Shown here piece by piece: positions 2,639 to 57,142 of a stretch of 64,000 bases of DNA (position 1 is the first letter of the stretch; each line of letters begins with the position of its first letter). A model generated the notes under the pieces. It saw nothing but the letters and a program-made list of their open reading frames with translations. It did no database searches and was not told where the DNA came from. The translations under genes and the position numbers were made by a program. The DNA comes from Eledone cirrhosa (taxonomy: Eukaryota), in assembly GCA_964016885.1 (NCBI GenBank), contig OZ024741.1:125736001-125800000 (forward strand), in the 5' to 3' direction.

Positions 2639-2836
2639 ATAGGAAAAAAGTATGACCCCGACGGCAGAGCTCAAGCCGTTTCGACGGCTATTTCTGGACT
2701 AAATTAGAATTTTTAACGGCTTGAGCTCTGCCGTCGGGGTCATACTTTTTTCCTATTTCCAACTCTACTACCCTAAGTATTGAGTACTCTGGTGCGTTAT
2801 GGTCCATCTGGTTCCTTACCACAATTCCTTTGTTTT
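2639..2836 (+). mobile_element. Fold-back mini-element, family A
   Basis: Arms 2639-2680 and 2715-2756, then an 80-nt tail; (TA)n flanks; homologous to 2864-2960 and 56669-56858. Confidence 0.8.
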
Positions 2837-2863
2837 ATATATATATATATATATATATATATA

Positions 2864-2960
2864 TAACGAAGGAGGCAAATGTATGACTAAATTCAATTTA
2901 GTCCAGAAATAGCCATCGAAACGGCTTGAGCTCTGCTGTCGGGGTCATACATTTTCCTAT
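2864..2960 (+). mobile_element. Family A remnant
   Basis: Inverted tail tip ATAACGAAGG followed by GTCCAGAAATAGCCATCGAAACGGCTTGAGCTCTG. Confidence 0.7.
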
Positions 2961-4566
2961 ATATATATATATATATATATATATATATATATATATATAT
3001 ATATATATATATATATATATAAATGTATAGACATATATATATATATATTTACAAACACACACACACACACACATATTTATATATACACACACACACACAC
3101 ACGCACACACACATATATATATATACGGGGGTGGGTGTAGTGTATTTATTATTTAGGTTTTTACTTTCTTATTCTGTTCCTGACGTTGAACACTTACTGA
3201 CGTCATTGATAGTTTTATATAGATTCCTTATTTATGTTACCCATTATATACCCATTTTCTCATTACCGTATATATATATATATATAAATAAATATATATA
3301 TATAAATATATATATATATATATATATATATATATATATATATATATATATATATATATATATATATATATATATATACATGTGTGTGTGCATGTGTGTG
3401 TGTATATATATATATACACACATTATCTATATATATATATATTCATATATATACATACACATATATATGTATATATGTATATATGTATTTATATATTATA
3501 TATATATATATATATATATATATATATATATATATATATATATATATATATATATATATATATATATATATATAGAGAGAGAGAGAGAGAGAGAGAGAGA
3601 GAGAGAGAGGGAGAGAGAGAGATAAGGCGAAAGAAAGAGGATGAAAATCAAACAACACTAACACAATCAACCCCACTCCCAGTCATCACCCCGTCTTCGC
3701 CGCATATCTATCTTCCTCACTTATTTCAGATTTATCTACGTGAACGTATAATTTCCCGTTGTGTCCAAGAAAAGTGTTTACACATACACACACTCGCACA
3801 CACACGCACACACACACACACACACACATACACACGCACGCACACACACATACATATATATATATATATATATATATATATATATCTAAATATATATGTT
3901 GGTATATATATATATATATATATATATATACCGACATATATATTTATATATACACGCATATATCTAAATATAGATACATATGCATACAACCCCCCCCCAC
4001 ACACACACACACACTTGCCCCTACATATATATATATTTATATATATATATATACATATACGTGTGTGCTTCTTGGCTGCGTGTGTGTGTATGTGTATATA
4101 TATAATGCTGTATCTGTGCGCTCCCGATGCAGCACCAGATGGAAGATCTCATTGATTTCGTACTATCGTTCATAAGCAGACGTTTGTAATGTTATAACTG
4201 TGGTAACAAGAGACTCCTGCATAGTATTAGGTATACATATACAAAGGAAAGAAATTCCATAAGGGAACATGAGGAAAGAAGGAAACAAAAAAGGAGGGAA
4301 AACAAACAATCACAGAAAATAACGAACGAAACAGTCACGGAGCATAGAAACTTCTTGGTCGCCCTGGCGATCGAAATCCCATTGAACATATCCAGGGCCG
4401 GCAGACGACGGTGTATGGAACGTTGTATTTGTTTCGTTGATCTTCATCTGTGTTTGATTTTATATTTTCTTACTTCTTTTCTTGTGTAGCTTTGTATATT
4501 TTCCCACACAGACCTATACGCATACGCGCACACACACACGTGCACTCAAAGATGCATATCTATCTA

Positions 4567-6082
4567 TCTCGGAGCCGTTCGAAATCGCGCAGTCCATCCG
4601 ACAAGGATGCTCTCACTCCTCCCTTCTGTATGTAGTGACTCTAGAGCCACTGCTGCGGAAGTTGGAGTTGTTGCAGGGCATCCCGTTGGAACCGGGATTG
4701 CGGAAAGCGGTGTCGGCCTACGCCGATGACATAACAGTAATGGTGTCGACGGCCTCGGAAATCGGGATGATCGGCACTTTACTGGAGGAGTACGAAAGGT
4801 TTACAGGGGCTAAGCTGAACCGGGACAAGCCGATCGGTCTGCAACTCGGCACGTGGATGGGCAAATCGTCGGGCACTGGACGGAGCGCCCGGTGAAGTTG
4901 CTCGGGGTCTGGTTCGGACCAGACCTCCAGGTGGAGAAGAACTGGGGTGAGGTAACGAACAGGGTGTTTGCACTGACCCAGAAGTGGGCCGAGTGCAAAC
5001 TGTCGCTGAAAGGTCGGGCGGAGGTGGCGAACACTTATATAGCGTCCGTCATCTACTACCGCCTGACTGTCGTGCCTTGCCCAAGGGAAACGCTCGCCAA
5101 AATGGAGCGCGCACTCTTTCAATTCCTTTGGAAGAAGCGGGCTCGTATGGTGAGGAGATCCATCTGCTGTCAACACCCTTCGAAAGGAGGGCTGGGTATG
5201 CCGTGGCTGATGATGCGTAAACACGCATTAAGGCTACGGCACCTCCAGGTATTCCTCACCGGTCAACCGGTGTGGGCCCCGTTTGTGAGGCGAGCCTTTC
5301 CCAGACTCGTCTCGCTCACCGAGCTGCAATTCTGGGTCTAGCAAAGACCGAGAAAACTGGGCGCCTGGCACACCGAGTGTGCCCAGGCGCTCATGGCTCT
5401 CTGGCAGGCGGACCCGGCTGTCAGTGGAGAATCCACCTCGTCATTCTATAGAGGGCTGGTGGTTAGCAGGTGTGACGACGCCCTCGGAGAAGCCCTAGGC
5501 ATGGAGGAAAGCGAACTGGCCAACCTGTTCGGTAGGACATTCAGCCCGGGACCTATGGATAACTTCCAGAGGTCCCTGGCCTGGCAGTGCTACTGATGGG
5601 CTCTGCCCGTTCGAGAAAGGCTCTACAGACACGGGCGCCCGGGTAGGGACCCCTCGAAAAAGATCTGTCCCAGATGCGTGTGCGACGAGGAAACTGTTGC
5701 ACACACATTGGTACACTGCTCGGGCATTGCCGATCTGTGGGGCTATGTCGAACGACTGCTGTCACGGGTGGGACCGATCCGGTTGACCACCGAGTCTATT
5801 GTAACGATCAAGCCGCCTCCCCTCTTCAAAAACGAAGGAGAGGCGGTGTTTCTGTGCGTAATAGCCATGGCGAAAGAGGTTGTATGGTGGACGCGTCTGA
5901 AAGGACTGAGGTCAGACACCTTTCTCTCTGGCCAACAACTGGTTCGTTTCTTCCGATATCATTTCGGAAGAAGGATCAGGATGGAGAGAGAGGTACTGAA
6001 CCCCAGCCGTTTCTATGAAAGATGGGTGAAAGTGGCGAGAATGGCCCGTGTGAATGGGCCTTCACTCTACATCAGACTGTAG
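4567..6082 (+). pseudogene. Disrupted ORF2 (RT C-terminal half plus zinc knuckle)
   Basis: ORF pieces 4482-4895, 4853-5341, 5393-5596 and 5678-6082, broken by stops and frameshifts. Confidence 0.88.
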
Positions 6083-6350
6083 GTGAGAAAGATGAAAGAT
6101 CAAGGGAGCACCCTCTCTCTGTGCTCCTGAGAAGAAGGGTTGCACACTTTTTTCGGGGGCGTGTGCAACCCCCAAGGCGCCTCCTCACTATTGAGGATTT
6201 TGTTATTCAATTTATTTTTGTTATATTTTATATTTTATATTTTTATATTTTGTTATTGCCTCCTCCTTATTGAGGACGCCTTTTTATGTAAACTCCCCCC
6301 ATTGTACTTGTCCCACTCTTTGATGTCCTGGTGGCAAATAAAAAGAAAGT
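4567..6350 (+). mobile_element. 5'-truncated Tx1/L1-clade LINE
   Basis: RT motifs RQGCSHSSLLY, AYADD, KLLGV, GGLG; C-terminal C..C...H...C knuckle; AATAAA; (TATC)n at both ends. Confidence 0.9.
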
Positions 6351-6407
6351 TATCTATCTATCTATCTATAAATCTATCTATCTCCATATATATATATATA
6401 TATATAT

Positions 6408-55535: not shown

Positions 55536-56465
55536 TTAATATTTTTTTAAGGCAACGCTTGTAATAACTCTAGTTAAACAGGATATATATTAATAATAAA
55601 TTATCGTTGTAATGTAATTAGATTATGTAATTGTTATTATAAATTATCTTATAAATATTAGTGTAAGATGTATAAAAATATTTTCAGACTTTTAATATAA
55701 TGTGTGTATATACAGGATGTCCCCCAAAAATATATACACACTTCAACAGCATTCTAATAACTATTGCCTATACAGGTAATCAAAGTGTCAATCGAATGTT
55801 AGTTTCGTGTTTTAACAGTACAAATTTACAATACACACATAAAACCAGTGTATATACATACATGAGTGTGTATACACATACATGAATGTGTATATACAAT
55901 ATATATGTATATATATATAGACACATATATTCACGGTGCAACGGAACATTAAAATATAGATGCGGGGGGGGGTATATATAGGGGCGCTGGGGATAAAGGA
56001 GTGTAAAGCGTAAGTGTGTAATTGATATATTGAAGGAGAGGAGCGTGCAGCGATAGAGTAACAAATATATAGAGAGGGGGAGAGATGGTATTGAAGGGGA
56101 GGAGTGCAAAGCGAAAGAGTAAGAGAGATATATATAGAGACGGAACAGATAGAGAGAAACAGGCGTAAGTAACAGTGGAAGAGATATAGAGAGAGGGGGT
56201 AATAAATAAATGGAAATATAAGTGTAACAGTATAAGAGATATATAGAGAGGGGGAAATGTGTTATTGAAGGGGAGGAGTGTAAAGTGAAAGCGTAAGATA
56301 TATATAGAGAGAGGGGGAATAGTATATATATATATATATATATATATATATATATATATATATATATATCAACACTTACTCTGATTGGTTGAAAATTAGC
56401 CAATGACATACGATCACCACCACCACGGCTATCCCCGGAAAATTTATGAAGAAGTTACGCATATA

Positions 56466-56520
56466 TGTTAGAACACGAAAAGTGAACATTCTGTTGTTTC
56501 ACACTTTTCGTGTTCTAACA
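56466..56520. repeat. 19-bp inverted repeat between TA tracts
   Basis: TGTTAGAACACGAAAAGTG / CACTTTTCGTGTTCTAACA. Confidence 0.85.
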
Positions 56521-56668
56521 GATATATATATGTGTGTGTAGAGAGAGAGAGAGAGAGAGAGAGAGAGAGAGAGAGAGAGAGAGAGAGAGAGAGAGAGAGA
56601 GAAGAGAGAGAGAGAGAGAGAGAGAGAGAGAGAGAGAGAGAGAGAGAGAGAGAGAGAGAGAGAGAGAG

Positions 56669-56858
56669 ATGTTTAACCTCGAGGGCAGAGCTCAAGCCGT
56701 TTCGACGGCTATTTCTGGACTCAGAAATAGCCGTCAAAACGGCTTGCGCTCTGCCGTAGGGGTTAAACATTTTTATATTACCCACTCTACTACCCTAGGT
56801 ATTGAGTACTCTGGTGCATTATGGTCAATCTGGTTCCTTACCACACTTCCTTCGTTAT
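56669..56858 (+). mobile_element. Fold-back family A copy
   Basis: Arms about 56669-56716 and 56722-56770, plus a tail homologous to 2757-2836. Confidence 0.8.
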
Positions 56859-56877
56859 ATATATATATATATATATA

Positions 56878-57142
56878 TATCACAAAAAGAAAGAGAATCA
56901 GTGTTGCGACGAATGGAATTTATTGGACACATTACAATCGTTTCTCTACCGACCAACTCGGGGCACGATCGTTGTGATGATCGAGGCACGATCGATCTGA
57001 AAATCGCAAGGGCCTCAGATACGTCTTGCTTCTACGAAGCAGATTTTCCAAATTTCTTTTTGTGATATCACACTTTGCTCTGTGAGAGCATCGAGTGCTC
57101 AAACGGCCTACCGCATACGGACGCTCTAAGCATCCAACACCA
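56878..57142 (+). mobile_element. Family E copy (long inverted arm, short forward arm, tail)
   Basis: Homologous to 53789-54154. Confidence 0.8.

Follow-up and report, generated by a model that had tools for sequence, protein, structure and literature searches.

A duplicated bulged hairpin in the 5' leader of Hydra-type Penelope-like elements as a likely RNA handle for RT start sites

We have identified a bulged hairpin that is present twice per element in the 5' leader of Hydra-type Penelope-like elements (PLEs), each copy lying 7-10 nt downstream of one of two fixed element ends. It is made up of an RCTC/GAGY outer stem, a T-N bulge and a covarying inner stem, with RC directly after. HP1 is the copy past the tail-less end (S1) and HP2 the copy past the tail end (S2), and the leader order observed is putative hammerhead, S1, HP1, S2, HP2 and ATG, with HP2 16-65 nt before the ATG. 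We find support for the hairpin as a cis-signal that is conserved, covaries and keeps a fixed distance to an element end. Judging from sequence, we estimate a probability of roughly 70% that each of the two hairpins is an RNA handle that sets one RT start.

Ten sites had been named by an initial annotation of a 64,000-nt stretch of Eledone cirrhosa DNA (the window), and all ten were confirmed in position and strand. HP1 of family A is found at 2762-2785 (+), with fold-back arms at 2639-2756 and a tail ending at about 2835 in (TA)n, and at 56784-56807 (+; arms 56669-56770, tail end 56855). HP1 of family B (8987-9032, +) has a G-C outer pair and a long loop (arms 8907-8984, tail end 9070). In family C, HP1 (28886-28905, +) is carried on a short tailed arm (28375-28876, +) that is the inverted partner of 25326-25827; the tail ends at about 28961-28970 and the tail-less S1 end lies at 25326. 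A hammerhead core read from sequence (28772-28813, +) precedes this HP1 by about 110 nt, and a 5'-truncated Hydra-type RT-EN reading frame occupies 27012-28343 (-). An older C-related copy has HP1 at 25162-25181 (+) with a mutated 3' half. Family D has HP1 at 39231-39249 (-; arms 39255-39353 and 39624-39722, hammerhead core 39293-39315, tail end 39188) and at 54222-54240 (-). Family E has it at 43515-43539 (-; arms 43543-43923, tail end 43467), 54081-54105 (+; arms approximately 53789-54077, tail end 54153) and 57072-57096 (+; a single outer-stem change, tail end 57141).

The core pattern occurs seven times in the window, whereas 100 shuffles gave 1.21 +/- 1.11 and never reached seven, and a covariance model built from 21 hairpins of other loci placed all ten sites in its top 11 window matches, so that the enrichment and the covariance model both bear out the first description. 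The extra match (13935-13961) is an additional family, R, with HP1 at 13939-13959 (-), arms at 13961-14129 and a tail ending at 13902. Also absent from the initial annotation was HP1 of family G at 46994-47013 (-), which has a one-base bulge and is accompanied by a hammerhead core (47064-47085), a Hydra-type EN fragment (47253-47695) and a tail end at 46954. Two further sites that had been called degenerate, near 45545-45562 and 57437-57460, lie on the minus strand in both cases. The latter is a decayed HP1 of family Z (57436-57455, -; arms 57460-57585) whose relatives have near-canonical hairpins. The former (45541-45561, -; arms 45567-45892, tail end 45506) lies at the HP1 position of family Y with its 5' half correctly placed and a 3' half that is atypical across the whole family. 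When each of the ten sites was folded alone, the full hairpin was the minimum-energy structure at only 4/10, with the outer stem only at a fifth site. An Rfam scan gave no match at gathering score and no hammerhead among the 150 matches listed, nearly all of which were microsatellites against miRNA models.

The hairpin had first been read as a 3' tail feature of five unrelated families, one of them labelled Nematis-like. It is instead a 5'-leader feature of one clade: by their homologous reading frames and motifs, families A-E are assigned to Hydra-type PLEs. The frames of A, B, D, E, G and W are homologous over 260-700 aa, with 26-51% protein identity between families, in trees that hold families of this genome only. 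The N-terminal motif RWR was found in A, B, C, D, G, K, M, N, P and Q (RWL in an E copy), and DK(T/S), a modified DKG, in A, B, C, D, G and others, though it was not recovered in the broken E, E2 and M copies. A CxCx5C linker together with EN CxxC and CxH around a conserved E and N is present in C, C2, D, N and N2, the A, B and E loci being too short to reach the EN. Family C has an open frame of 737 aa, an RT with a C-terminal GIY-YIG-type EN; a Pfam search of this protein gave no match, so the EN assignment rests on motifs. Its CxCx5C linker and Hydra-type C-terminal motifs replace the Nematis label, since a CX2-5CxxC linker was not found and an EN CCHH motif is, by eye, absent. Hammerhead cores were recovered by a simple pattern in C, D and G; A, B and E have variant or long-stem cores outside this pattern.

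The picture of a single hairpin was correct for HP1 at one end and incomplete, since HP2 at the other end had been overlooked. Full-length copies of A, B, C and E, and further families as well, have HP2 past the tail end; the held-out families G and W have the identical layout with an ORF, and the ORF-less families I, U and V retain both hairpins. There are departures from the standard form. In family D HP1 is present and the HP2 position holds a plain 4-bp stem only, yet S2 is fixed; family Y has fixed ends but an atypical hairpin; and the bulge of family G is one base. The initial consensus YACTC/GAGTR holds at the other named sites, with departures at 2762, 8987, 25161 and 57071, and the bulge, thought to be pyrimidine-only, is T-N (TT in 17, TC in 7, TA in 7 and TG in 1 of 32 clusters).

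The earlier observation that the inner stems differ in sequence and still pair was substantiated across these 32 clusters. Inner pairs are Watson-Crick in 29/32, 24/31 and 17/29 clusters against 15.1, 11.2 and 6.6 when shuffled, and the outer pair in 31/32 against 16, counts that overstate the number of independent events because the clusters are related; the first pair covaries between A-T and G-C, and one or two switches may be all that the first inner pair of HP1 has undergone. The 5' starts for these counts were taken from cluster frequencies or by hand, and a mis-picked start in family V was kept, which lowers the counts. Alternative bulge sizes of 0, 1 and 3 gave pairing at chance level. 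A covariation tool count on a trimmed alignment of 21 hairpins (21/22 rows, one mutated K copy being left out) found 118/118 cells paired with 25 double changes, and with RNAalifold the outer stem alone was recovered. Cells of G-U type are more numerous than those of A-C type, 10 to 4, and a C(UUCG)G loop occurs in one B HP2 copy and one Z HP1 copy. For the HP1 stem, pairing is predicted with a probability below 0.3 in 9/18 leaders. The tails between the hairpins gave no alignment across A-E.

Element ends follow the position of the hairpin, in agreement with the initial annotation. In the window an inverted arm ends close upstream at eight of the ten sites, with the BLAST end 3-14 nt before the stem in 7/8; for the eighth (site 28886) BLAST overshoots in AT-rich DNA and a separate repeat search puts the end at 28876. 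The window search found no inverted arm for sites 25162 and 54240. For end mapping, 120 copies were chosen by neutral anchors and ends were located by TA-run mapping, since local alignment overshot in TA-rich DNA; 112/120 continue into a TA run, as expected of a (TA)n target. Ends lie 5-11 nt before HP1 in 48/120 copies and 6-11 nt before HP2 in 32/120, together 80/120 (80/112 among those with a TA run), with modes at -8/-9 and -7/-10, against a background of 21/124 TA/AT steps of the references inside these windows. The offset is equal at both ends despite spacers of 40-129 nt across families. Family D has a second tail-less end at -18 (11/30 copies, 8 of these being one amplified composite). 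In 270 kb of held-out sequence, a TA run followed at 25-95 nt downstream of 19/22 model matches, against a background of 7%. An inverted partner was present within 1.5 kb for only 58/120 anchored copies, and 86/90 classifiable inverted insertions combine one S1 with one S2 end (p 2e-21 at 50%, 6e-15 at 60%). Two ends without the hairpin are also seen in family X, a PLE of this window outside the Hydra clade; 12/13 of its pairs are likewise hetero pairs, and the S1/S2 pairing rule therefore does not need the hairpin.

A long-range helix joins the flanks of HP1 and HP2 in about half of the families. Over 14 groups, cognate 3' flanks pair better than non-cognate ones (permutation p 1e-5), and a shuffle test gave a Fisher p of 7e-7; a control window upstream of HP1 likewise pairs above chance (p 0.004 and 2e-4). 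The helix is individually significant in 5/12 groups and absent in B, E and K. We propose that the RT-EN protein, probably as a dimer, would bind both hairpins, which the helix between their 3' flanks would hold in a roughly two-fold arrangement, and would nick both strands of (TA)n. Pairing with an A/U patch of 2-4 nt, immediately 5' of a hairpin, could then allow each nicked 3' end to prime cDNA, each hairpin positioning one RT for priming from one of the two nicks. The cDNA from S2 would copy HP1, which becomes the tail, and that from S1 would be without HP1; both cDNAs would truncate and join head to head. The suggestion of a cis RNA signal that fixes the cDNA start survives in part, as a conserved, covarying signal at a fixed offset, with the start placed upstream of the hairpin and not in its bulge.

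The genomic ends are compatible with priming or cutting alike and do not distinguish them. An improbable alternative is that the motif acts at the DNA level: the GIY-YIG EN would recognize it within a cDNA of greater length or an integrated intermediate and cut 7-10 nt upstream, which would make S1 and S2 cut sites. A protein that reads sequence would be well served by the invariant CTC/GAG letters, the available text of PMC11167929 cites a requirement for the D. virilis Penelope DNA tail in EN recognition, and the main text of PMC8557442 ascribes the tail to EN-mediated resolution. However, a folded sense strand is the better fit to the variable-sequence covarying pairs, the G-U cells and the UUCG loops, the linking helix belongs to the sense strand and is specific to the family, and in the Poseidon element PAc the in vitro RT starts coincide with both ends (PMC11167929, available text). 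Slightly less probable still, the hairpins could direct RNA cutting at S1 and S2, with the two RNA 3' ends copied by ordinary 3'-end TPRT. A measured cut would fit the fixed offset and RNA-seq read ends coincide with the PAc start sites, but, according to the same text, the PAc product stayed the same upon 3' extension and depended on RNA 3' of the start (PMC11167929); independent cut RNAs alone would, moreover, not yield the 86/90 hetero pairs.

It is quite unlikely that the hairpins are expression signals (an initiator-like promoter element, or translation or packaging control) whose adjoining ends are set otherwise. The proximity of HP2 to the ATG, the lack of a canonical HP2 in family D and the 5' half of HP1, which we take to resemble the initiator consensus, would fit such a role. 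The literature available also mentions an initiator-like motif for Adineta pLTRs. Against it stand the equal offset from two different ends despite the variable spacers, the retention of hairpins in ORF-less families and a first pair that covaries between A-T and G-C. That the motif is there by chance, or by passive descent from a shared ancestor, might be suggested by its shortness and by the single clade of all the families, but this is already largely refuted and very improbable, given a genome-wide abundance four- to eleven-fold above that of reversed patterns, neighbouring sequence that cannot be aligned, protein identities of 26-51%, the covariation, and the motif in coral and sea cucumber.

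Genome-wide, the motif has 160,068 matches against 38,166, and two patterns together give approximately 150,000 excess matches, many in short fold-back MITE-like copies. Two metagenome scans for Hydra relatives with flanks found none, and the evidence from other phyla therefore consists of six published Hydra consensi inspected by eye, three of which have clear hairpins, coral and sea cucumber among them; Hydra-1_Ajap has two tandem hairpins before the ATG. We found no description of a duplicated clade-wide hairpin in the freely readable literature searched, including the available text of PMC3846280, PMC4209133 and bioRxiv 10.64898/2026.07.22.740005. In its available text PMC13282606 does not contain the words 'Hydra' or 'hairpin', and the main text of PMC8557442 contains neither 'hairpin' nor 'stem-loop', the motif sitting unremarked in its consensi.

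The origin of PLE head-to-head insertions with a one-sided tail is a question two decades old, and the lone in vitro study gave two start sites, though no determinant of them. With a signal that is short, duplicated and covarying, at a fixed distance from each start, exact mutations become testable in a young family with open frames; the signal also offers a model for how telomerase's sister group sets RT register on RNA. In practice, the hairpin is a marker that identifies the clade and the orientation of short MITE-like fold-back copies. More broadly, and at slightly less than even odds, Hydra PLEs may encode a pseudo-two-fold RNA scaffold, with like hairpins at opposite helix ends, onto which a dimeric RT related to telomerase is loaded; priming at the same time from the two nicks of one double-strand target would then be a built-in twin priming and the normal transposition route, conserved between cnidarians and echinoderms, and other PLE clades would rely on scaffolds that are analogous but different.

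Structured RNA recruits its own RT-EN through the 3'-terminal stem-loops of stringent LINEs and SINEs and the R2 3' UTR, and in L1 twin priming two nicks prime one RNA, giving an inversion. Unlike these signals, the Hydra hairpin is internal, 3' of the first copied base and duplicated, and its second start is fixed, not opportunistic. The hepadnaviral epsilon templates protein priming from its bulge. As in epsilon or the template-flanking elements of telomerase RNA, a bulged stem-loop or helix would fix the RT register on the template; the analogy with epsilon is loose, and priming from the bulge was rejected, since the start sites lie upstream, 7-10 nt before the stem, and the primer would be nicked DNA. 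The families described here share with the Hydra clade of Craig et al. (2021; PMC8557442, main text) RW(K/R), DKT, the CxCx5C linker, EN CxxC and CxH, putative hammerhead cores, (TA)n targets and inverted copies with a one-sided tail. They differ from it in an S1-to-S2 tail of approximately 70-100 nt versus 30-40, and in the 4.0-kb repeat period of family C versus the usual <3 kb. According to PMC8557442, the RTs of PLEs form the sister group of TERT. From PAc, a pair of internal RT starts that flank the tail is already known in vitro, where they lie in the leader/ORF-start region (Frangieh et al. 2024; PMC11167929, available text here and below); both strands were nicked, a dimer was predicted, and RNA 3' of the start was required. 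The start site was equal between strands with no homology to the target, which speaks against the model proposed here. PAc starts in a stem-loop of AC-rich sequence inside the ORF, whereas in Hydra the starts would fall upstream of the ATG, in A/U patches on the 5' side of the hairpins, with 2-4 nt of TA microhomology. By eye, the RCTC/GAGY motif is absent from the PAc RNA printed in Fig. S1, and the available text describes no repeated signal, cross-family conservation or pairing rule. The clade-wide duplicated hairpin goes beyond what we found described in the literature searched, and the analogy with PAc, the one PLE studied in vitro, is that ends of this kind are RT start sites (PMC11167929).

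All ten sites at which the initial annotation had placed a bulged hairpin were confirmed in position, and the core pattern was found in the window 7 times, where 1.21 were expected. Across the window's own 3.0-Gb genome (G000), YACTC-N6-20-TYGAGTR gave 160,068 matches vs 38,166 for the reversed pattern, and the G-C variant gave 28,379 vs 2,609. Most matches among the first 100 listed and in 80 kb of arbitrarily chosen DNA had (TA)n downstream, at a distance characteristic of the family, and in the same material inverted arms stopped a few bases short of the stem. A covariance model of 21 hairpins returned the ten sites among its top 11 window matches; in 270 kb of arbitrary DNA, a TA run lay 25-95 nt downstream of 19 of the 22 model matches above 15.5 bits and upstream of 5 (background 7%). 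Taken in isolation, the hairpins fold weakly: at 4/10 sites the minimum-energy fold is the full structure.

The Penelope-like element (PLE) families at these sites had been described as five unrelated families and the hairpin as a feature of their 3' tails; neither description held. Family C, whose many near-identical copies contain an open frame of 737 aa (95 matches scored, each at 99% identity or above), carries its hairpin 128 nt upstream of the ATG and 106 nt downstream of a hammerhead core. Its protein contains RWR, DKT, a CxCx5C linker, CxxC and CxH, the motif set given in PMC8557442 as the definition of the Hydra clade, so the label "Nematis-like" is replaced. Full-length junctions of families A (locus L151), B (L409), D (L084) and E (L238) run into homologous frames, with N-terminal protein identity among A-E of 26-51%, although broken frames may have lowered the values for family E. 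The families are therefore distantly related members of a single clade, and what was called the "tail" is part of the 5' leader. The tails between the hairpins aligned no better than shuffles (p 0.17-0.99, 10 pairs among A-E). A Pfam search with an intact Hydra-type protein (L122; window 27012-28343) returned no match at E 0.01, which helps explain the under-annotation of this abundant clade.

The leader reads hammerhead, S1 (the tail-less insertion end), HP1 (the hairpin following it), S2 (the tail end), HP2 and ATG. HP2 has the same build as HP1 and starts, in full-length copies, just past the point at which tailed copies end; the two-hairpin pattern was matched 1,132 times vs 271. At 18 full-length junctions, subfamilies included, HP1 and HP2 were 71-163 nt apart, and the ATG followed HP2 after 16-65 nt at the 11/18 junctions where our script found a frame. 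The layout, together with a Hydra-type frame, was also present in families G (L435), whose search pattern required only the 5' half of HP2, and W (L456), which came from arbitrarily chosen DNA. Families I, U and V have no frame within 1.5-2.6 kb and retain both hairpins. Family D is the exception, with a plain 4-bp stem where HP2 is expected. In family R (L398-L402), 183-bp tandem units consist of HP1, tail, HP2, a short flank and little else, without a hammerhead or ORF; this is possibly a minimal mobilisable unit. HP1 of family A, together with its flank, gave rise to a tandem satellite of 34-nt period (L153-L155). In most tailed family B copies (window 8987-9070), C replaces the purine directly after HP1, which several full-length copies keep.

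Pairing was assessed in 24 HP1 and 8 HP2 clusters seeded on the 3' half only. Inner pairs 1-3 were Watson-Crick in 29/32, 24/31 and 17/29 of these related, not independent, clusters vs 15.1, 11.2 and 6.6 when shuffled, counts reached in 0/5,000 shuffles, and the outer pair was A-T or G-C in 31/32 vs 16 expected. Control bulges of 0, 1 and 3 nt left inner pairing at chance. In the 21-hairpin alignment 118/118 cells are paired, vs 17-58% in slid registers, and three of the pairs account for 25 double changes. On protein trees read by eye, one or two switches suffice for the first inner pair of HP1, and the second and third require several changes.

Insertion ends were mapped, as the last base preceding a TA run, in 30 copies each of A, D, E and C taken in chromosome order with four anchors upstream of HP1. 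With both arms of a single insertion counted twice, and a slight bias toward TA-ended copies from anchor patterns ending in W, 48/120 copies stopped 5-11 nt before HP1 (31 at -8 or -9) and 32/120 stopped 6-11 nt before HP2 (21 at -7, 8 at -10). Only 21/124 TA/AT steps in the references lie inside those windows. Another 32/120 ended elsewhere, many of these being true ends next to a run that has mutated, 8 being one amplified composite and 3 more sharing its -18 site in D; 8/120 had no TA run. Since TA microhomology of 2-4 nt is present at each junction, the start is known only to within that range. An inverted partner lay within 1.5 kb of 58/120 anchored copies. Among 106 head-to-head pairs from all loci collected, both ends could be classified in 90, as S1+S2 in 86, S2+S2 in 3 and S1+S1 in 1 (p 6e-15, even with a 60% null allowing for HP1-based selection). 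Eight copies (L300, L304-L307, L313, L323, L326) share one family D fragment and an identical flank, and represent a D insertion that was multiplied within another repeat.

The sequence following HP1 pairs with the flank that follows HP2; in C, F, N, Q, V and W the linking helices are perfect over 9-12 bp and differ in sequence. The pairing was significant over 14 groups (permutation p 1e-5) and against shuffles (Fisher p 7e-7), though individually in only 5/12 groups, being weak in B, E and K. Three control windows were flat; a fourth, upstream of HP1, showed more pairing with the same flank than chance predicts (p 0.004), a result that may stem from an additional outer helix or from a fault in the control.

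No canonical hairpin was present in five further (TA)n insertions of fold-back or inverted type (803-1035, 44120-45091, 46667-46940, 54581-55600 and 57194-57408), most of which have a one-sided extension; one contains hammerhead cores at 44264-44288 and 44715-44739. At least eight copies of a dispersed ~190-bp repeat, SINE-like in size, lie at 8097-8517, 16422-16617, 34877-35078, 37031-37215, 46039-46230, 49129-49311, 57937-58125 and 62953-63181. A degenerate 6.7-kb array of 9-, 12- and 15-nt units (16734-23479) yields long low-complexity frames. Other retroelement fragments (4458-6082, 11843-13269, 37627-38698 and 52508-53749) include a PLE that matches the Pfam RT and GIY-YIG models and what we take to be L1/Tx1-like, REL-endonuclease LINE-like and Neptune-like sequences.

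Layout, end offsets, covariation and pairing rule are direct observations of this analysis, and we hold it nearly certain that the hairpin is a cis-signal. Rival explanations would have it direct cutting of DNA, cutting of RNA, or control of expression. Because HP1 enters the copy only from S2 and HP2 never does, the signals have to work on the template or on a longer intermediate. Our main reading, that the hairpin positions the RT on RNA, is given a probability of roughly 0.7. S1 and S2 would then be RT starts, with one RT bound per hairpin, which would set the register. The linking helix might place two RTs at opposite ends, although a coupled symmetric dimer of this kind is a tentative proposal, put at slightly under even odds. 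Both starts would be primed by two nicks in (TA)n, and truncation and head-to-head joining would produce the insertion; two cDNAs from the same upstream RNA could arise by displacement, from two RNAs, or from a tandem or circular template.

One-sided tails and inversions have been published (PMC8557442, PMC3846280), as have two internal starts near a stem-loop (PMC11167929); in the literature searched, no account was found of a hairpin that is conserved or duplicated in the leaders of PLEs. In a reading by eye of the six consensi in File S7 of PMC8557442, the hairpin is evident in Hydra-2_Amil (coral) and Hydra-2_Ajap, occurs twice in Hydra-1_Ajap (sea cucumber), at a spacing of 61 nt and 29 nt upstream of the ATG, takes variant forms in Hydra-1_Crog and Hydra-1_Amil, and is not clearly discernible in Hydra-1_Obim. 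Six 9-letter terms from the 3' half occur 7 times in that whole supplement, 4 times as these hairpins.

Family X, a non-Hydra PLE whose frame (window 31487-32962) matches Pfam RT and GIY-YIG, has two ends 60 nt apart and 12/13 hetero pairs; the Hydra-type hairpin was not found in it, and a predicted long helix spans S2. The same few bases follow both X ends (window 33386-33434 (+); L420), and beyond S2 lie a 5-bp hairpin and sequence predicted to pair with the tail, features that suggest an analogous but different scaffold. For the element PAc, PMC11167929 reports that the two genomic ends are RT starts, that both target strands are nicked, that RNA 3' of the start is required and that a dimer is predicted; the RNA printed there is without the Hydra-type hairpin. 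The hairpin is therefore clade-specific and the two-end rule general.
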